Positions 2,971 through 45,653 of a stretch of 52,343 nt of DNA are shown piece after piece. The stretch spans positions 1-52,343 of the forward strand of contig SCQK01000002.1 in assembly GCA_004321885.1 (NCBI GenBank), given 5' to 3'. The position numbers and the translations under genes are program-made. This DNA is from Patescibacteria group bacterium (lineage in GTDB: Bacteria > Patescibacteriota > Patescibacteriia > Magasanikbacterales > GWA2-37-8). Below the pieces are notes generated by a model. The model was not told the DNA's origin and did no database searches. It worked only from the letters and a program-made list of their open reading frames with translations. Each line of letters starts with the position of its first letter. Within the stretch, counting starts at the first letter, position 1.

Positions 2971-4077
2971 ATGCCAAAAAAGAAAAAGGAATTATCCTCC
3001 TTTGAAGAAAAACTAAACCGGTGGGTGGCCAGCCATTTGAGCCGTGTGCCGACAATGCAAAAGGTCTTGTTTGTCAGCCACCTGAAAACCATGACCAAAG
3101 CCGGTCTGTCTCTGATTGACTCGCTAAAGACTTTGGAGCAGGAAATTGAAAACAAAAAACTGAAAAAAATCGTGGGCGAAATAGCGTGCGGCGTGGAAGC
3201 GGGCAAGCAGTTGAGCGAGGTGCTGGCCGAATATTCCAAAGTCTTCCCTTCCATTTACGTCAGCATGATTGCCGCCGGCGAAAAGGCCGGCAAACTGGAA
3301 CACGCCCTGGAGCAGGTCTCTTTGCAGATGAAAAAAAATCACGAGCTCATCGCGCGCGTGCGCGGCGCCATGATTTACCCGGCTATCATTGTGCTGGCCA
3401 TGGCCGGCATTGCCACAGAAGTGGTGGTCTTCATTTTGCCCAAGCTGATGACGATGTTCAAAGAAATGGACGCCGAACTGCCCCTGGCCACGCGCGCGCT
3501 TATCGGACTCACCGACGCGGTGGCGCGATACGGGCTGTGGATGGCGCTGGGCCTGGCCGCTTTTATTGTTTTAGCGGCCTGGGCCGTAAAAAAACCGCGC
3601 GTGAAAAAAGTGGTGCACACTGTCAATCTCAAACTGCCCATCGCTGGCAAAATCATAAAAAAAATCAACCTGGCGCGCTTTACCATGACCATGTCTTCTT
3701 TGCTTGAAAGCACCATCCCCATTATTGAGGCCGCGCGCATCACCGCCGACGTGCTGGGCAATGTCATTTACAAGCGCAGTTTGATGGACGTTTCCGAGGC
3801 GCTCAAAAAAGGCGAAACCCTGTCCGAAATTTTAGCCCGCTACCCGGACATTTTCCCGCCCATGGTCACTGAAATGATAACGGTGGGCGAAAAATCGGGC
3901 AAAACCGAAGAGATGCTTTCTGAACTGTCCGACTATTACTCCAATGAGGTTGACGTCACCATGAAAAATTTCACCACCATCATCGAGCCGGCCATTATTC
4001 TGGTGCTGGGCCTGGCCGTGGCCGGCATAGCCGTGGCCGTTATCATGCCCATGTATTCCCTCACCCAAAACATTTAG
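2971..4077 (+). CDS. pilC: Type IV pilus inner-membrane platform protein PilC (GspF family)
   Basis: 368 aa with two repeated GspF-type domains and three TM segments. It lies immediately downstream of pilB. Confidence 0.85.
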   Translation: MPKKKKELSSFEEKLNRWVASHLSRVPTMQKVLFVSHLKTMTKAGLSLIDSLKTLEQEIENKKLKKIVGEIACGVEAGKQLSEVLAEYSKVFPSIYVSMIAAGEKAGKLEHALEQVSLQMKKNHELIARVRGAMIYPAIIVLAMAGIATEVVVFILPKLMTMFKEMDAELPLATRALIGLTDAVARYGLWMALGLAAFIVLAAWAVKKPRVKKVVHTVNLKLPIAGKIIKKINLARFTMTMSSLLESTIPIIEAARITADVLGNVIYKRSLMDVSEALKKGETLSEILARYPDIFPPMVTEMITVGEKSGKTEEMLSELSDYYSNEVDVTMKNFTTIIEPAIILVLGLAVAGIAVAVIMPMYSLTQNI

Positions 4078-6323: not shown

Positions 6324-6645
6324 CTTCAAATTCAGTCTGGAAAAAAGCGGCCGCTATGCCCACTGGCGCGTGCTTAATCTTATCATCGTCGGCCTGCTTC
6401 TGGGCGGCGCCATGTTTACCTTTTATTTCATCCAGCAAAACATCTTTTCTTCCATTGCCAATGCCAACGCTATCGTAGCCCTGCGCGCGAATGCGAGCGC
6501 CGACACGGTGAATTTACAGGCCTTCGCGGCGGCCAAAGATGCCATCGCTGAAAAAAAAATAAAAATAGAATTAAACACGGCCCTGCGCAATATTTTTTTC
6601 TATGCCGCGACTTCAACCAGAATCGCGAGCGGCACAAACCAGTGA
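6310..6645 (+). CDS. Small single-pass membrane protein of unknown function (possibly a pilus accessory protein)
   Basis: 111 aa ORF with one hydrophobic helix (LNLIIVGLLLGGAMFTFYFI). It is co-oriented with the pil operon and shows no recognisable domain. Confidence 0.4.
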   Translation: MHPINFKFSLEKSGRYAHWRVLNLIIVGLLLGGAMFTFYFIQQNIFSSIANANAIVALRANASADTVNLQAFAAAKDAIAEKKIKIELNTALRNIFFYAATSTRIASGTNQ

Positions 6646-7804
6646 ACAGAATAAATACTGGTTTGTCTTGGGCCGCGAACCGGAATTATCCGCGTCAGAA
6701 CTGGACGCGGTTCTTTGTTTGAACGGCCAATTTTCCATTAACCAAAACATCCTGATTGCGAATGCGGCTGTAAACGGCGAGCTGATAAACCGACTCGGCG
6801 GGACCATAAAAATCGGCCGGGAAATCGGAAGCGGTTTATCGGAAGAACAAATGATGGAGAAAATAATTGACGAACTAAAAACAATAGGCGGCAAAATCCA
6901 TTTTGGCTTGAGTTTTTACGGCCCTCCCCGGTTGCCGATGAAAACCTGGGGCCTACGAATCAAAAAAGAACTGACAAGCTCGGGCCTATCCGCGCGCTAT
7001 GTGGAAAACAAAACCCCGGTTTTGTCTTCGGTGACCGTGGCGAAAAATAATCTGCTTAAACGCGGGGCCGAATTTTTAATTTTTGGCGCGGGCGGTAAAT
7101 TTTCCCTTGCTAAAACCATCGCGGTCCAGCCGTTTGAAGAATTCAGCCGCCGCGATTATGGCCGCCCGGCACGCGACGACGTCAGCGGCATGCTGCCGCC
7201 GAAACTGGCCATGATGATGATAAATTTGACTGGCATCTCTCTCCCCTTGCTAAGGGGAGGGCTGGGGAGGGGTAAAATTTTGCTGGATCCTTTTTGCGGG
7301 TCGGGCACCATCCTGACCGAAGCCCTGCTTTTGGGATATGGCGACTTGGTTGGCAGTGATGTTTCCGCTAAAGCCGTGGCGGACACGTTAAAAAATATTG
7401 AATGGACGGCCAAAAATAAAAAGATAAACGTGTTTCAAAGCGACAGCGCGGACATCGGCAAACATCTCGCGCCCAACTCAATAGACGCCATTGTCACCGA
7501 ACCCTTTCTGGGCAAGCCATTGCGCGGCAATGAAAGCCGGGCCGATTTGGCCGGGCAGGCCGAAGAACTGCGACTTCTTTACGAAAAAGCCTTTCAACAA
7601 TTCCAAAAAATCATCAAACCGGGCGGCGTGGTGGTCTTCGCGAGCCCGAGATTTTTTTTCAAAAACGAAACAGTCAGGGTAAATTTTGAAACAAAAAAAT
7701 ACGGCTTTACGCCGGTTCCCTTTTTCAACAAACAAAACTTTCTTCTTTACCACCGGCCGGGCCAGCGCGTGGCGCGGGAAATCTGGCGGTTTGTTAAACG
7801 TTGA
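6602..7804 (+). CDS. THUMP-domain RNA methyltransferase (UPF0020, RlmL/Trm11-like class I SAM methyltransferase)
   Basis: 400 aa with a SAM motif LLDPFCGSGTILTEA and a catalytic TEPF (DPPY-like) motif. The N-terminal region is THUMP-like. Its start overlaps the upstream ORF by 44 nt and no alternative in-frame ATG is visible. Confidence 0.7.
   Translation: MPRLQPESRAAQTSEQNKYWFVLGREPELSASELDAVLCLNGQFSINQNILIANAAVNGELINRLGGTIKIGREIGSGLSEEQMMEKIIDELKTIGGKIHFGLSFYGPPRLPMKTWGLRIKKELTSSGLSARYVENKTPVLSSVTVAKNNLLKRGAEFLIFGAGGKFSLAKTIAVQPFEEFSRRDYGRPARDDVSGMLPPKLAMMMINLTGISLPLLRGGLGRGKILLDPFCGSGTILTEALLLGYGDLVGSDVSAKAVADTLKNIEWTAKNKKINVFQSDSADIGKHLAPNSIDAIVTEPFLGKPLRGNESRADLAGQAEELRLLYEKAFQQFQKIIKPGGVVVFASPRFFFKNETVRVNFETKKYGFTPVPFFNKQNFLLYHRPGQRVAREIWRFVKR
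7237..7276. repeat. Short palindromic element (CTCCCCTT-GCTA-AGGGGAG plus a GAGGGGTAAA tail) inserted in frame in the methyltransferase gene
   Basis: tctctccccttgctaaggggagggctggggaggggtaaa. It encodes ...SLPLLRGGLGRGK... directly before the LLDPFCGSGT motif, where homologues have a shorter loop. Related copies occur at 8212-8274 and 45172-45194. Confidence 0.6.
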
Positions 7805-8915
7805 CGTGAAAGTAACACACATCCCCATCACGGACTATATATTCTTTGCCCTCCAACCTTAACTTGCCGCTTTCTTTTATTTTTGACCAACCGCCGTACT
7901 GCACGAAGTCCTCCCAATTTGCCACATCGGCCTTGATAAAGCCCTTGATAAAATCCGTGTGAATCACCCCGGCCGCTTGCGGCGCTTTGGCGCCTTTTTT
8001 TACGGTCCAAGCGCGCGTTTCCGGTTCGCCGCTGGTTAAAAAAGTAATTAGTCCCAAAAGTTCATAACTCGCTTTAATCAATTTGTCCAAACCGGTTTCT
8101 TTCATACCCAACTCGCCCAGATACTGGCGCGCTTCATCAGGCGGCAGATCGGCCAATTCCGCTTCCAGCTTGGCGCAAATTTCTATTTGCGATGCGGTGG
8201 TCGTTGTCGATTCTCTCCCCTTTATAAGAGCTTGTCCCGAACTTGTTTCGAGAGGGGAGTGAGAGAGGGGTAAAGGCGCTTCATCGGTATTCACCACATA
8301 CAGCAAAGGCTTCATCGTCAGCAGATGCAATTCTTTCATCAATTCTGTCTCTTCCTCGTTATACTCCAACTCCCGCGCCGGTCTACTTTTTTGTAAAGTA
8401 TCATAAACTTTTTCCAGCAAAGCGATTTGATTTTGAAATTCCTTGGCCGCGGCGCCTTTTGCGGATTTTTTGAGCGTGTCCAGCCGTTTGGCCACGGTTT
8501 GCAAATCAGCCAACGCCAATTCGGTGTTGATAATTTCCGCGTCCTCGGCCGGGTTCACGCGGTTGTGCACATGGGCGACATTGGGGTCCGCGAAAGAGCG
8601 CACCACCTGCGCGATGGCGTCCACTTCGCGAATATGCGATAAAAATTTATTGCCCAAACCCTCGCCTTCGGAAGCGCCCTTTACCAAACCGGCAATATCC
8701 ACAAACTCCACGGCCGTGGGAATTATTTTTTTTGATTTAGAAATTTCGGCCAGTTTGGCTAAACGCTCGTCGGGTACCTCAACCACGCCCACATTGGGGT
8801 CTATGGTGCAAAAAGGATAATTTTGGACGTCCGCCTGCTTACTGCGAGTAAGGGCGTTGAACAAGGTTGACTTGCCCACGTTGGGCAGGCCCACTATACC
8901 GACGGAAAAAGACAT
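7794..8915 (-). CDS. ychF: Ribosome-binding ATPase YchF (Obg-family GTPase/ATPase)
   Basis: Start trimmed to MSFSVGIVGLPNVGKSTLFNALT (ATG at 8915), because the longer ORF-track start overlaps tRNA-Ser. The C-terminal TGS domain (IHTDFIKGFIKA...YIVRDGDV) is conserved. Confidence 0.9.
   Translation of the reverse strand: MSFSVGIVGLPNVGKSTLFNALTRSKQADVQNYPFCTIDPNVGVVEVPDERLAKLAEISKSKKIIPTAVEFVDIAGLVKGASEGEGLGNKFLSHIREVDAIAQVVRSFADPNVAHVHNRVNPAEDAEIINTELALADLQTVAKRLDTLKKSAKGAAAKEFQNQIALLEKVYDTLQKSRPARELEYNEEETELMKELHLLTMKPLLYVVNTDEAPLPLSHSPLETSSGQALIKGRESTTTTASQIEICAKLEAELADLPPDEARQYLGELGMKETGLDKLIKASYELLGLITFLTSGEPETRAWTVKKGAKAPQAAGVIHTDFIKGFIKADVANWEDFVQYGGWSKIKESGKLRLEGKEYIVRDGDVCYFHVNV
8212..8274. 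repeat. Palindromic element copy (CTCCCCTT...AGGGGAG...GAGAGGGGTAAA) in frame inside ychF
   Basis: tctctcccctttataagagcttgtcccgaacttgtttcgagaggggagtgagagaggggtaaa. It encodes PLPLSHSPLETSSGQALIKGRESTT in the variable loop between the G-domain and the TGS domain. It shares both ends with the copy at 7237. Confidence 0.55.
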
Positions 8916-8917
8916 AG

Positions 8918-9005
8918 CGGAGAGGGTGAGAATCGAACTCACGAGGCCATTCCTGGCCTACCGCATTTCGAGTGCGGCGCACTAGACCAACTATGCGACC
9001 TCTCC
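8918..9005 (-). tRNA. tRNA-Ser (anticodon CGA), type II with long variable arm
   Basis: Manual fold: acceptor GGAGAGG/CCTCTCC, 3-bp D stem, anticodon stem CCGCA/TGCGG with loop CTCGAAA, a long variable arm, T arm GTGAG-TTCGATT-CTCAC, and discriminator G. Confidence 0.8.
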
Positions 9006-13565: not shown

Positions 13566-14426
13566 TTATATTTTTATCCACTCCGAAGGCAGTAAATCCC
13601 CGGCATCAATATCAGCGGCGACCAGCCAGCGGCCGGGCGCCACCACGATTTTTTTCTCATTCTGATTCAGCCAAGCCGCCCACCAGCTAAAAGTGCTGTT
13701 GGCGATTATTTGATGTTTGCACAAACTCATCAGCGCCAGCTCCTCGGCCGCTCTTAGCGATGGCCGGGAAACAAAAACCATCGGCTCATCAAATTTCAAA
13801 CTATCCTTGGCCCAGGCGATGTCATCCGAGAACACGAAAATTTTAAGCGGCGCGTATTTTTTCCTGACCTCGGCCAGCCCTTTTTGGTAATAATTTACAT
13901 CGCATAAGCCGTTCCAGTCCAAGCAGGAAGCGGCGTAATCGCCGCGGCGAATATGAACGGCGACCGCATTGGGCGTCTGCTCAATTTCTCTTGCCAGCGC
14001 CTGCGCTTCGCCGGAATATTCCCGCAAAACAAAATCAGCTAATAAAATGCCTCTGATAGAATCAAAATATTTATAACTCTGAAAATAACCGCTTAAAAAA
14101 ACGGCTTTTTTCTTTTTGAGCAGGCGCGAATTGAAGCGATAAAAATAATTTCTGTTCCAGCGGCCCCTTATTTTTTTCGCGAATTGATTAAGGCGAGCCA
14201 ACAGGCCGTTGCCCTGGGCCTTTTTTATTTCTTCAACGGTCGCTTTGTTCAAGTTCACCTTAAATCCGTCAATTTCCAAATCTCTCGGCGTCTCTCCGAT
14301 CCGGCTATGGCCAAACCACGACAGGTCAAATTTCAGCGGAGCGCCCCAATCCAAAGACAGGCGCCGGCCCAAGGCGTATTGAAACATCTGATTGCCCAGT
14401 CCGGCGCTTAGCCGCATTATTATCAT
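13566..14426 (-). CDS. Glycosyltransferase family 11 (alpha-1,2-fucosyltransferase-like)
   Basis: 286 aa with the hallmark GT11 motif I (GLGNQMFQYA) and the motif HIRRGDY. Confidence 0.75.
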   Translation of the reverse strand: MIIMRLSAGLGNQMFQYALGRRLSLDWGAPLKFDLSWFGHSRIGETPRDLEIDGFKVNLNKATVEEIKKAQGNGLLARLNQFAKKIRGRWNRNYFYRFNSRLLKKKKAVFLSGYFQSYKYFDSIRGILLADFVLREYSGEAQALAREIEQTPNAVAVHIRRGDYAASCLDWNGLCDVNYYQKGLAEVRKKYAPLKIFVFSDDIAWAKDSLKFDEPMVFVSRPSLRAAEELALMSLCKHQIIANSTFSWWAAWLNQNEKKIVVAPGRWLVAADIDAGDLLPSEWIKI

Positions 14427-39174: not shown

Positions 39175-40062
39175 TTAAAATTCCACCCAGCTATTGGCAA
39201 AAACGCTGTCATATTTATTAAAATTATTCCAATTCTTGGGAGCGATAACTATTTTGGCGCGGTTGGTATTTAGCCAGGCCGCCCACCAGCTAAATGTGCT
39301 GGACGACATAATACTGTGTTTGCACAAACTCATCAGACGTAGGTCAAGATAGGAATTTTTGCCAATATTATTGTCAACAATGACGCACTGCGCCGGTATT
39401 TTTAAATTTGCTTTGGCCCAACTGGGGTCATCGGAAAAAATAAAAAAAACCGGCTCGCTTACTTTTTTTAATATATATTCACAAGCCTCCTGACAATAGC
39501 GCAAATCCCGCTTTTGCGCAAATGCCGCCTTGGCCGGGTCGCCCTGAATATGGTCGCCGCGGCGGATATGAAGAAAAACCGAATTAGTGGCGGCTATCAT
39601 GTTGGCCAATTCTTTGTTTTTCCCGGCGAGCGGCTCCTGGAAAGAAAAATCCCGCCTGATAGCATCGGCCGCGTCCGCGAAATAATTTTCATGGGCCCAA
39701 ATACCGGACAGATAGGCCTTTTTTCCCAAACCCAAAATTTTAGGCTCAAAGCATTTGGGAGCAGCCTCTTCTATCACATAGCCGCGCTCAAAAATTTTCG
39801 CCAGTTTGTTCAATAAAAAAGCTATGACAAACGCCAAATTATTAAAATAAAAAGCGACCCTGGATAAAAAAGTAAAATTTGCTTTAAGATTAAAAATACC
39901 CAGCCCATAACTGCGAAAAGTAAAATCTTTTCTCGGCAAACGATGCAATAAAAAAGTCAGGTCAAGTTTTAATTTAACACCCCGCTTCAAAGCCAAGCGC
40001 CGGGCGCAAGCGTATTGAAACATCTGATTGCCAAGCCCGCCGATAAGTTTAACTGTTATCAT
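39175..40062 (-). CDS. Glycosyltransferase family 11 (alpha-1,2-fucosyltransferase-like), second copy
   Basis: 295 aa with GGLGNQMFQYA and HIRRGDH motifs. Confidence 0.75.
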   Translation of the reverse strand: MITVKLIGGLGNQMFQYACARRLALKRGVKLKLDLTFLLHRLPRKDFTFRSYGLGIFNLKANFTFLSRVAFYFNNLAFVIAFLLNKLAKIFERGYVIEEAAPKCFEPKILGLGKKAYLSGIWAHENYFADAADAIRRDFSFQEPLAGKNKELANMIAATNSVFLHIRRGDHIQGDPAKAAFAQKRDLRYCQEACEYILKKVSEPVFFIFSDDPSWAKANLKIPAQCVIVDNNIGKNSYLDLRLMSLCKHSIMSSSTFSWWAAWLNTNRAKIVIAPKNWNNFNKYDSVFANSWVEF

Positions 40063-44995: not shown

Positions 44996-45137
44996 CGTTT
45001 CACCCCGATGTTCGTTGTGTTGTAAATGATTTTGGTCAAAGCCAAAATCATCTCACCCTAACATACACCGATAAAAAAATCAAGGCCTTGAGCCCTGATT
45101 TTGCGATTTTGACTGAATTCTGTTTTACCCCCTCCCT

Positions 45138-45168
45138 GTCACCACACCAAAATTTTTGGTGTGGTGAC
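45138..45168. repeat. Perfect 31-nt palindrome GTCACCACACCAAAA-T-TTTTGGTGTGGTGAC
   Basis: Seen directly in the sequence, in the intergenic region between the two Nudix genes. Confidence 0.6.
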
Positions 45169-45171
45169 AAG

Positions 45172-45194
45172 CCTCCCCCTTGTCAAGGGGGAGG
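45172..45194. repeat. Intergenic copy of the CTCCCCCTT-GTCA-AGGGGGAG palindromic element
   Basis: cctcccccttgtcaagggggagg. It is related to the in-frame elements at 7237 and 8212. Confidence 0.6.
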
Positions 45195-45197
45195 AAT

Positions 45198-45653
45198 TCA
45201 TCCCATCACCCTCTGCCAAAATCCCCTGTGCCCGTCAATAATATTCTTGGGCATGGTTTTGAAAAATCTGCCTTTTTTCGGCTTCATAATAGTCCGGCAC
45301 TCAAACACCAGCGACACTGTGTGCCCGCGCGAACCCTGGCTGCAATCATTGGCAAACAAAAATTTGGAATCGCTGACATTAATCCCCAGCTCTTTCCAGG
45401 CCACGGCCTGGATGCGTTCGTCAAAGCTCTCGCGAAAGCGCAGAAGACCGCCCGGGAAATGCCAGCCGCGCCACCACTGGTCGTCGCGCCAGGTGAGCAA
45501 CACGCCCCGCGGACTCTTTATCACCAGCTCTACGGCCGCAAAAGTTACTACGCCGAGCAGAGCTTCAAAAACCGGCTGTGGCAGGCCCTCGTGAGGGTTG
45601 TCTATTTTTTTCAGCAGGACGCAAAGCTGTTTTAATTCTTTCGCGTTTAACAT
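45198..45653 (-). CDS. Nudix hydrolase, GDP-mannose mannosyl hydrolase (Gmm)-like, second copy
   Basis: 151 aa with motifs VLLTWRD and GWHFPGGLLRFRESFDERIQAVAWKELG, paralogous to 14423..14875. Confidence 0.6.
   Translation of the reverse strand: MLNAKELKQLCVLLKKIDNPHEGLPQPVFEALLGVVTFAAVELVIKSPRGVLLTWRDDQWWRGWHFPGGLLRFRESFDERIQAVAWKELGINVSDSKFLFANDCSQGSRGHTVSLVFECRTIMKPKKGRFFKTMPKNIIDGHRGFWQRVMG

Follow-up and report, generated by a model that had tools for sequence, protein, structure and literature searches.

Intrastrand triplex motifs have been catalogued in 5,246 genomes, and in their class II form a single strand carries a 5' pyrimidine block, a purine block and a 3' reverse-Hoogsteen block (Holder et al. 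2015, NAR, PMC4666352). TM_ECO, which the same paper equates with BoxC and, by its secondary account, with the PIT element of Hoyne et al. 2000, follows the pattern CCCTCNCCC N3-6 GGGNGAGGG N3 GGGNGAGGG; as a single strand it forms a stable triplex in vitro, as seen by circular dichroism (CD) and nuclear magnetic resonance (NMR), but it has no promoter or terminator activity, shows no association with transposases, phages or plasmids, and is always intergenic in E. coli K-12 (PMC4666352). Triplex motifs as a group are very abundant in Cyanobacteria and have been tied to local sequence instability and linked to slippage and repair-associated change (PMC4666352). Here we describe three sites in a 52,343-nt window (the whole stretch of DNA that was analysed) from a metagenome-assembled genome (MAG) of Patescibacteria, within the Candidate Phyla Radiation (CPR). 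Two of the sites lie in frame inside conserved genes, one encoding a methyltransferase and the other ychF, and in our judgement all three are probably copies of a short dispersed DNA repeat of the PIT/BoxC/TM triplex-motif class. Our statements on the host genome cover these 52 kb.

Read along one strand, the unit consists of a C/T-rich arm, a 3-nt loop, a complementary G/A-rich arm, a 3-nt turn and a mirrored G/A arm that is usually followed by TAAA. The third block mirrors the purine arm such that G stands opposite G, and A or T opposite A. Judged by its sequence, this three-block arrangement is the class II intrastrand purine-motif triplex architecture of the PIT/BoxC/TM class. The three copies (A, B and C), their parts and the two host genes are located in the window as follows.

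7239..7274, plus strand: copy A, a canonical 36-nt class II triplex motif (triplex scan, k=10, 1 mismatch, loops 3/3)
7239-7248, plus strand: copy A, pyrimidine arm CTCTCCCCTT
7249-7251, plus strand: copy A, loop 1, gct
7252-7261, plus strand: copy A, purine arm AAGGGGAGGG
7262-7264, plus strand: copy A, loop 2, ctg
7265-7274, plus strand: copy A, mirror (reverse-Hoogsteen) arm GGGAGGGGTA, with an AAA tail next to it
8213..8271, plus strand: copy B, a degenerate or expanded triplex motif (extended-loop triplex scan, k=9, 1 mismatch)
8213-8221, plus strand: copy B, pyrimidine arm CTCTCCCCT
8222-8252, plus strand: copy B, loop 1, 31 nt
8253-8261, plus strand: copy B, purine arm AGGGGAGTG
8262, plus strand: copy B, loop 2, 1 nt
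8263-8271, plus strand: copy B, mirror arm GAGAGGGGT
45126..45195, minus strand: copy C, a non-coding triplex motif of 70 nt (triplex scan, k=11, 1 mismatch)
45195-45185, minus strand: copy C, pyrimidine arm TCCTCCCCCTT, followed by the loop gac
45181-45171, minus strand: copy C, purine arm AAGGGGGAGGC, followed by loop 2 of 34 nt
45137..45169, no strand assigned: perfect 15-bp hairpin GTCACCACACCAAAA/TTTTGGTGTGGTGAC in loop 2 of copy C (fold)
45136-45126, minus strand: copy C, mirror arm GGGAGGGGGTA, followed by aaa
6602..7804, plus strand: host gene 1, an S-adenosylmethionine (SAM)-dependent methyltransferase (Pfam PF01170, UPF0020/RMKL-like, and other SAM-methyltransferase models)
7794..8915, minus strand: host gene 2, ychF, ribosome-binding ATPase (Pfam PF01926 and PF06071)

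The window was searched with a scanner built on the criteria of PMC4666352 (block order, stems and mismatches), and an extended run allowed loops of up to 40 nt. With canonical loops the 52 kb returned copy A alone, and with extended loops it returned exactly three sites: A (k=10, 3/3), B with a first loop of 31 nt and C with a second loop of 34 nt. The corresponding means over 100 dinucleotide-preserving shuffles of the window were 0.01 (against 1) and 0.00 (against 3), an excess that is not accounted for by chance. A separate hairpin scan found three C-rich/G-rich hairpins of this type in the 52 kb. All three copies have the class II block order (5' pyrimidine-rich, purine-rich, reverse-Hoogsteen 3'), stems that follow the class II rule (6-15 nt, with at most one mismatched triplet if longer than 7) and an antiparallel third block. 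The original prediction, made from the window's sequence, had described palindromic elements with nearly identical ends, in the same plus orientation, in both genes. The ends are in fact exact: the 11-mer TCTCTCCCCTT occurs at exactly two sites in the window (7238-7248 and 8212-8222), as does the 10-mer GAGGGGTAAA (7267-7276 and 8265-8274), all on the plus strand. The term palindrome fits two of the three blocks, but the third is a mirror of the purine arm.

The nature of the third block was examined without bias by scanning viral contigs for the bare hairpin CCCCTCCTT-N3-5-AAGGAGGGG, with the downstream sequence left unspecified. A perfect 9/9 mirror (GGGGWGGTW) was located 2-7 nt downstream in 44 of 157 hairpin-orientations and an 8/9 mirror in 21 more, whereas a perfect direct repeat was found downstream in none of the 157. 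A second asymmetric arm, AGGGGAAGG, yielded 12 perfect mirrors (GGATGGGGA/T and variants), but it discriminates less well because six of its orientations are also perfect direct repeats. Across the other loci compared, the mirror match exceeded the direct match in 137 cases versus 29, and behind each of several differing arms (AGAGGGG, AAAGAGGGG, TGGGAGAAGGGG and AAGGGGAAGG) comes the mirror of that particular arm. As a mirror with G.G, A.A and T.A matches has no copying origin, we take it to be the signature of a one-strand reverse-Hoogsteen triple helix.

The window elements resemble PIT/BoxC/TM_ECO in block order, in stems of 9-11 nt, loops of about 3 nt and a unit of about 36-37 nt. In both, the arms are conserved and the loops free, many dispersed copies exist that are sometimes arranged as inverted pairs, no transposase is located nearby, and Cyanobacteria are rich in copies. 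However, the arms differ (CYCTCCCCTT in the window as compared to CCCTCNCCC), and the strict TM_ECO pattern has no match in the window and six in the other loci compared; on sequence grounds the window elements are thus a different sequence family of the TM_ECO/BoxC structural class and not E. coli BoxC. They also differ in setting, as two of the three window copies are in frame in conserved genes whereas every TM_ECO copy reported in E. coli K-12 is intergenic, and viral-classed contigs frequently carry related motifs whereas TM_ECO is not phage-associated.

The elements had originally been likened to Rickettsia palindromic elements (RPEs; Ogata et al. 2000, as cited in PMC3184786 and PMC3733652). 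The resemblance holds in that both are dispersed, structured repeats that occur in frame in conserved genes and are tolerated at the protein surface, here in loops whose extra residues the orthologues lack. Membership does not hold: RPEs are elements of Rickettsia of about 105-146 bp (PMC3184786), with a terminal CGTC tag (PMC3733652) and long imperfect palindromes lacking a mirror block, whereas the window units measure 36, 59 and 70 nt, have a mirror block and span phyla, and neither a GTAG nor a CGTC tag was found at their flanks. Repetitive extragenic palindromic (REP) sequences and their paired form, REPINs, associated with REP-associated tyrosine transposases (RAYTs), are likewise highly repeated G/C-rich stem-loops of 20-40 nt that sometimes form inverted pairs, are occasionally located within open reading frames (ORFs) and are targeted by other inserting elements (PMC3116915, PMC3733652). 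REPs differ in having an unpaired GTAG/CGTC tag, a RAYT gene and no mirror third block; among the ~50 window ORFs scanned there was no RAYT and no transposase or Y1_Tnp protein. In comparison with MITEs (miniature transposable elements with inverted repeats), the window copies are solitary units without terminal inverted repeats beyond the hairpin, and copies A and B are without a flanking duplication. The small dispersed repeats (SDRs) of Nostoc (Elhai et al. 2008) are reportedly mobile repeats of 21-27 nt that are nested in MITEs and in each other. Nostoc triplex modules also occur inside MITEs in this manner; the two differ in that the window module spans phyla, whereas SDRs are reported to be restricted to Nostocaceae (PMC5861425).

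Both coding copies were correctly predicted to be in frame, within the methyltransferase ORF 6602-7804 (+) and ychF 7794-8915 (-), and the peptides originally quoted for them match. Alignment with 119 methyltransferase and 120 YchF relatives reveals that the extra residues coincide with the elements. We also looked among these orthologues for the peptides in the absence of the nucleotide motif, and found none; a similar peptide does occur in a single methyltransferase orthologue (P0229), which contains a triplex motif of its own.

The host gene of copy A is THUMP-type and is named either Trm11-like or DNA methyltransferase in the sources. Copy A is read in the sense frame as the peptide (S)LPLLRGGLGRG(K), three of its six reading frames are stop-free, and its hairpin has a predicted stability of -7.8 kcal/mol (ViennaRNA, Watson-Crick pairs only). 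The insert is positioned between a helix (200-209) and a strand (226-229), adjoining motif I (DPFCGSGT) on its N-terminal side. In 118 of the 119 orthologues five residues (e.g. TPLNS) precede LLDPFCGSGT, as compared to 14 in the window (ISLPLLRGGLGRGK), such that copy A adds nine residues to the loop. The AlphaFold model of the protein has a mean pLDDT (predicted local distance difference test score) of 91.6, and residues 211-220 (mean 63) form its only internal dip. At the DNA level, copy A is identical at 33 of 36 bases to the Chamaesiphon copies L031, L079 and L100, and the three differences are all located in loop 1. Methyltransferase relatives P0151, P0193, P0203, P0216, P0235 and P0240 contain inserts from other hairpin-repeat families.

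Copy B, which runs antisense to ychF, contributes the peptide PLPLSHSPLETSSGQALIKGRE to the variable loop that joins the strand at 204-209 (LYVVNTDE) to the strand at 243-246 (IEICAK). The YchF protein is 373 residues long here as compared to a typical 356-359, with the surplus located in the loop from LYVVNxDE to QIEIxAK (alignment with 120 relatives), which copy B lengthens by 14 residues relative to the usual form. AlphaFold residues 211-240 have pLDDT values of 56/45/36, the lowest in the model. The first 14 nt of copy B (CTCCCCTTTATAAG) equal the commonest cyanobacterial form, which suggests, from sequence, a canonical unit at the outset and a later gain or divergence of ~26 nt inside loop 1. 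Its loop has no second copy in all the sequence compared. Motifs in this YchF loop vary in their arms from one lineage to another. The window YchF product is absent from the protein collection under either an ATG (373 aa) or a GTG (382 aa) start, and the neighbouring methyltransferase is present (P0121); the GTG-start ORF, 7794-8942 (-), would overlap tRNA-Ser at 8917-9005. The copy B insert may have led the annotator to skip or flag ychF. Other hairpin-repeat families are inserted in the same loop (window 8190-8290) in P0001/P0016, P0007/P0010/P0030, P0015, P0038, P0040 and P0073, and the peptides from such other repeat inserts include IPAASGNPVPIESSGFPIKLGMT, VIPTEVEESLSSSLRDPSATLGMT, SLPADEAG, LSLRGATSDVAIPKQ...GIATPSKGR, HSERHAYRQAGSE and MLKQVQHDK. 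From these sequences, it appears to be common for several unrelated small repeats to colonise CPR genes in frame.

A third, non-coding copy had been predicted at 45172-45194. It exists, but it is not confined to that segment, as the full element runs from 45195 to 45126 on the minus strand. Copy C begins directly after the stop codon (45198-45200) of the minus-strand ORF 45198-45653. A terminator-like hairpin followed by T7 lies downstream of it on the same strand (45070-45102, AAATCAGGGCTCAAGGCCTTGATTTTTTT), and its position between a stop codon and a probable terminator places copy C in a 3' untranslated region. The perfect 15-bp hairpin nested in its loop 2 is a secondary insertion or expansion and has no second copy in all the sequence compared. 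With both hairpins folded, the element has a predicted stability of -28.4 kcal/mol (z = -7.3). GAATTC flanks copy C at 45115-45120 and 45194-45199, the right-hand site overlapping the stop codon of ORF 45198-45653 (-), and this pair may be either a 6-bp target duplication or chance.

Motifs of the same class occur inside genes at other loci. A methyltransferase (L001) carries LPPLLRGGSGGF in the loop used by copy A, with different arms; a YchF (L002) carries two motifs on opposite strands; and two further YchF genes (L252, TTPSPLLGQEG, and L253, TTPSPILGQEG) carry a motif antisense to the gene, as copy B does. The L253 methyltransferase contains two motifs. The densest case is the cobalamin operon of a groundwater Nitrospirae MAG (JACQZF010000032; L037 1205-7594), in which at least nine in-frame motifs are distributed across five genes. 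The operon has six genes that encode 250 aa or more, and five of them contain one to three motifs each, encoding peptides that include ITPPIPPLVRGGEGG, ENPPIPPLEKGGKGG and NPLSPPFRKGGMGG. From sequence, not Pfam, we take the motif-bearing genes to be CbiA-, CobD-, CobQ- and CobC-like.

In the CPR inserts L001 and L002, the third block is followed by a common tail, TTTGCCGTCGAYYGAG. When metagenomes were scanned for a motif with this tail, six matches were obtained, of which two were genuine (L261 and L259) and four were chance, and a viral-contig scan for the tail GGTTTGCCGTCGAYYGAG gave two chance matches and no motif. The first genuine match revealed a ~100-nt composite that is shared by the L002 YchF (3492-3588) and a QueA gene (L261, about 1100-1198; PF02547), in which it is in frame. 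The two copies are identical at about 96 of 103 positions and their flanks are unrelated. The composite is arranged as a triplex motif, a TTGCCG-N19-CGGCAA core and a second motif that is inverted, so that its ends are inverted triplex motifs. Because it is near-identical in two genes of different contigs with unrelated flanks, the composite has the form of a discrete mobile unit and gives, at the level of sequence comparison, the strongest indication that preformed units get inserted into genes; this applies to the composite relative, not to copies A-C. In the second genuine match (L259, about 3040-3125), this tail connects a motif to a different, 'RDPSSPRGSLGMT'-type hairpin repeat inside a gene for a UvrD-type helicase, and the same helicase carries a second insert, VIPAQERESRQ...FVGNDKSGN.

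To describe the distribution of the 36-nt module, one genome per species was scanned for CTCCCCTT-N2-32-AGGGGAG-N3-9-GGGGTAAA, and the proportions obtained are no census. At least 119 genome stretches match. Among those listed, almost all are from Cyanobacteria (Nostoc, Microcoleus, Chamaesiphon, Tychonema, Scytonema and others), and one or a few stretches each are from Nitrospirota, Planctomycetota, Bacteroidetes, Deltaproteobacteria, Pseudobdellovibrionaceae and Marinomonas. The 36-nt module pattern was present on one viral contig as well. The listed matches include 111 copies of exactly 36 nt, in which the arms are 95-100% conserved even at positions that the pattern left free, loop 1 has 23 variants, and at the A/T position in the third block 100 copies have T and 11 have A. 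The 36-nt module is therefore not lineage-specific: it is conserved across phyla, with fixed arms and free loops. Among the cyanobacteria-dominated matches listed, ORFs of 150 codons or more contain 17% of the motifs, versus 75% of random positions, and on viral contigs the values are 57-63% versus 81-83%. As these shares differ between samples, the intragenic habit is lineage-dependent.

Several arrangements were observed among the loci compared. The viral-classed contigs L144/L145, L202, L220/L247 and L245 carry six to eight hairpins of one arm type each, most with a mirror block; IMG/VR contigs may include host DNA, which qualifies viral carriage. In Nostoc, L034, L058, L062, L066, L023, L061 and L076 contain MITE-like elements with the terminal inverted repeats gctacggtgtacacacaagtc / gacttgtgtgtacaccgtagc, which carry two triplex motifs of unlike sequence, one per orientation. 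These MITEs themselves sit in loop 1 of other triplex motifs, e.g. CCCTCTCCTTTATAAG|MITE|CTTTATAAGGAGAGGGATTGAGGGTGAGGTAAA in L034, and also in L062 and L066. Motifs are tandemly multiplied in L076 and L061, and a Microcoleus stretch (L089 1081-1254) is a tandem array of a 69-bp repeat with one motif per unit. A Chamaesiphon stretch (L040 1408-1460) has the symmetric form TTTACCCCACCCCAGCC-CTCCCCTTGGCAAGGGGAG-GGCTGGGGTGGGGTAAA, with the third block on both sides, such that either strand can be read as a motif, or the whole as a single 25-bp hairpin.

The window itself encodes a single-stranded DNA-binding protein (SSB), ribosomal protein S6, type IV pilus proteins, the methyltransferase, ychF and a long glycan-synthesis cluster, together with two tRNA-Ser and one tRNA-Ala. 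At gathering thresholds, Rfam matched these three tRNAs and nothing else in the whole window, so no known RNA family covers the elements. A general repeat search of the window did not report the element family, because the copies are very short and carry indels. BLAST of the copy A region against phage records gave chance matches alone, with the low-complexity filter probably interfering, and literature searches by raw sequence or inserted peptide returned nothing relevant. The closest YchF relatives are named Candidatus Magasanikbacteria or Patescibacteria. Within the glycan-synthesis cluster, paralogous family-11 glycosyltransferase genes are present at 13566-14426 and 39175-40062, ~25.6 kb apart, with 73-81% DNA identity over stretches that include 13665-13733 and 39268-39336.

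If the three sites are copies of a dispersed triplex-motif repeat, the following course of events can be proposed. Each element would form a hairpin whose third block is predicted to lie antiparallel along the purine arm in the major groove, giving G.G:C, A.A:T and T.A:T triplets. The elements would have been inserted as DNA, with no protein-level role, through a trans-acting or repair-linked process of spread. Their persistence could be explained by a 36-nt unit that is a multiple of three and stop-free in three of six frames, so that a fair fraction of insertions into tolerant loops would leave the gene intact and only these would survive selection. By analogy with TM_ECO, the single-stranded element may fold during replication or repair, causing polymerase pausing and local instability; such instability would explain why loops are expanded in copies B and C, and the Nostoc MITEs lodged precisely in motif loops would fit it too. 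By the same analogy, the elements would be selfish or structure-prone DNA that has been filtered to tolerant loops and open frames. A wider proposal, which we regard as possible but tentative, is that they represent a cross-phylum mobile triplex-motif family, possibly phage-carried, that routinely colonises essential-gene coding sequence in some lineages (CPR/Patescibacteria and groundwater Nitrospirae), its 36-nt, stop-poor build allowing it to stay in frame, and that is moved by a structure-specific mechanism recognising the triplex or hairpin and not terminal inverted repeats.

A number of observations weigh against reading the sites as inserted triplex-motif copies. TM_ECO formed no triplex in duplex DNA or in vivo by dimethyl sulfate (DMS) footprinting (PMC4666352). 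In contrast to copy A, whose loops of 3 and 3 nt are within the 1-6 nt limit, copy B (loop 1 = 31) and copy C (loop 2 = 34) differ from the published class in having loops far past it, and they are best read as derived copies. Copy B, with loop 1 expanded to 31 nt, folds no better than its shuffles (z about 0), and because its hairpin is no more stable than these it may be a decaying relic. In the YchF proteins P0087 and P0021 the motif fills the loop with little or no net length change, and replacement or in-situ origin therefore fits these normal-length loops as well as insertion does. In the protein collection the closest relatives share at most 77% protein identity, so the exact edges assigned to the inserts, any duplication of the target site and a gain in preference to a loss are all provisional. 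Finally, the G tracts of copy A (GGGG A GGG CTG GGG A GGGG) could also form a G-quadruplex.

Four other explanations were weighed against the dispersed triplex-motif repeat. It is rather unlikely that the elements are hairpin-only repeats of the REP/REPIN or RPE type, in which a RAYT or IS200-IS605 TnpA-like tyrosine transposase reads the stem-loop and the third block is a passenger or a cleavage/guide segment. The reverse complement, TTTAC-N16-hairpin, loosely recalls IS608-type left ends. Inverted pairs occur in L002, L261 and L040, as they do in REPINs, and the Nostoc modules ride in MITEs with terminal inverted repeats; REPs and RPEs behave in a similar manner, also inside ORFs (PMC3733652, PMC3184786). 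However, the window elements have neither a GTAG nor a CGTC tag, no transposase or Y1_Tnp is encoded among the ~50 window ORFs, and TM_ECO has no transposase association (Holder et al., PMC4666352). Moreover, across many arms the third block co-varies with the purine arm as its mirror (A to A/T), which favours a reverse-Hoogsteen strand because no copying or guide-pairing mechanism predicts a mirror. The same property makes de novo slippage unlikely, as no template-copying step can produce a mirror repeat, and an origin at the site itself or through repair-associated copying (by slippage, template switching or gene conversion), with replacement of the loop sequence, is in our view slightly less probable still. 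Such an origin would suit the YchF proteins P0087 and P0111 (358 aa), which contain the full motif (TTPSPILGQEG) in a loop of normal length, as well as the different arms that YchF loop motifs have in different lineages, and Holder et al. tie motifs of this kind to slippage and repair-associated change (PMC4666352). Yet copies A and B lengthen their loops, and the near-identity of the 100-nt composite in two unrelated genes, with sharp boundaries, looks like the insertion of a preformed unit.

The G tracts also permit a reading in which the element is a G-quadruplex whose four tracts are conserved and whose C-rich arm is incidental. Copy A and the cyanobacterial consensus GGGGAGGGTTAGGGTGGGG fit the G3+N1-7 x4 rule, but conservation of the C-rich arm equals that of the G blocks, the first of which it always complements, the arms of many members (AAGGAGGGG / GGGGTGGTT, GGAGAGG) interrupt the G tracts, and copy B is without four G3 runs, all of which makes this account improbable. 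We give very little credence to a protein-level explanation, in which low-complexity Pro/Gly loops are selected or convergent and the DNA symmetry is a by-product. Both inserts are indeed P/L-rich and then G/R-rich, and both are located in surface loops. Nevertheless, the frame and strand in which one and the same DNA unit is translated differ between the genes (LPLLRGGLGRG sense; PLPLSHSPL...KGRE antisense), copy C is non-coding, the cyanobacterial copies are mostly intergenic among the matches listed, and it is the DNA that is conserved (33 of 36 nt shared with the Chamaesiphon copy). In the AlphaFold models, the predicted confidence is also lowest in the inserts.

If the elements are copies of a dispersed triplex-motif repeat, they place this class in frame in a methyltransferase, YchF, QueA, a UvrD-type helicase and cobalamin enzymes, a setting that is undescribed in the available literature. 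BoxC/PIT/TM elements have been known for decades, and the E. coli copies were described as strictly intergenic and unlinked to mobile DNA; a near-cyanobacterial module in a CPR genome, together with a composite in two genes, provides concrete filled sites for the question of mobility. As TM_ECO was reported without phage association, phage carriage of the triplex class merits attention. The elements offer a simple way to explain some of the odd Pro/Gly-rich loop insertions by which protein annotation in uncultured bacteria is inflated and confused, and they are natural test cases for the stalling of replication or transcription by such structures inside genes. If the cross-phylum mobile reading is true, no mobile element before this one would have been defined by a triple-helix fold, and the family would be a general source of protein loop insertions in uncultured bacteria.

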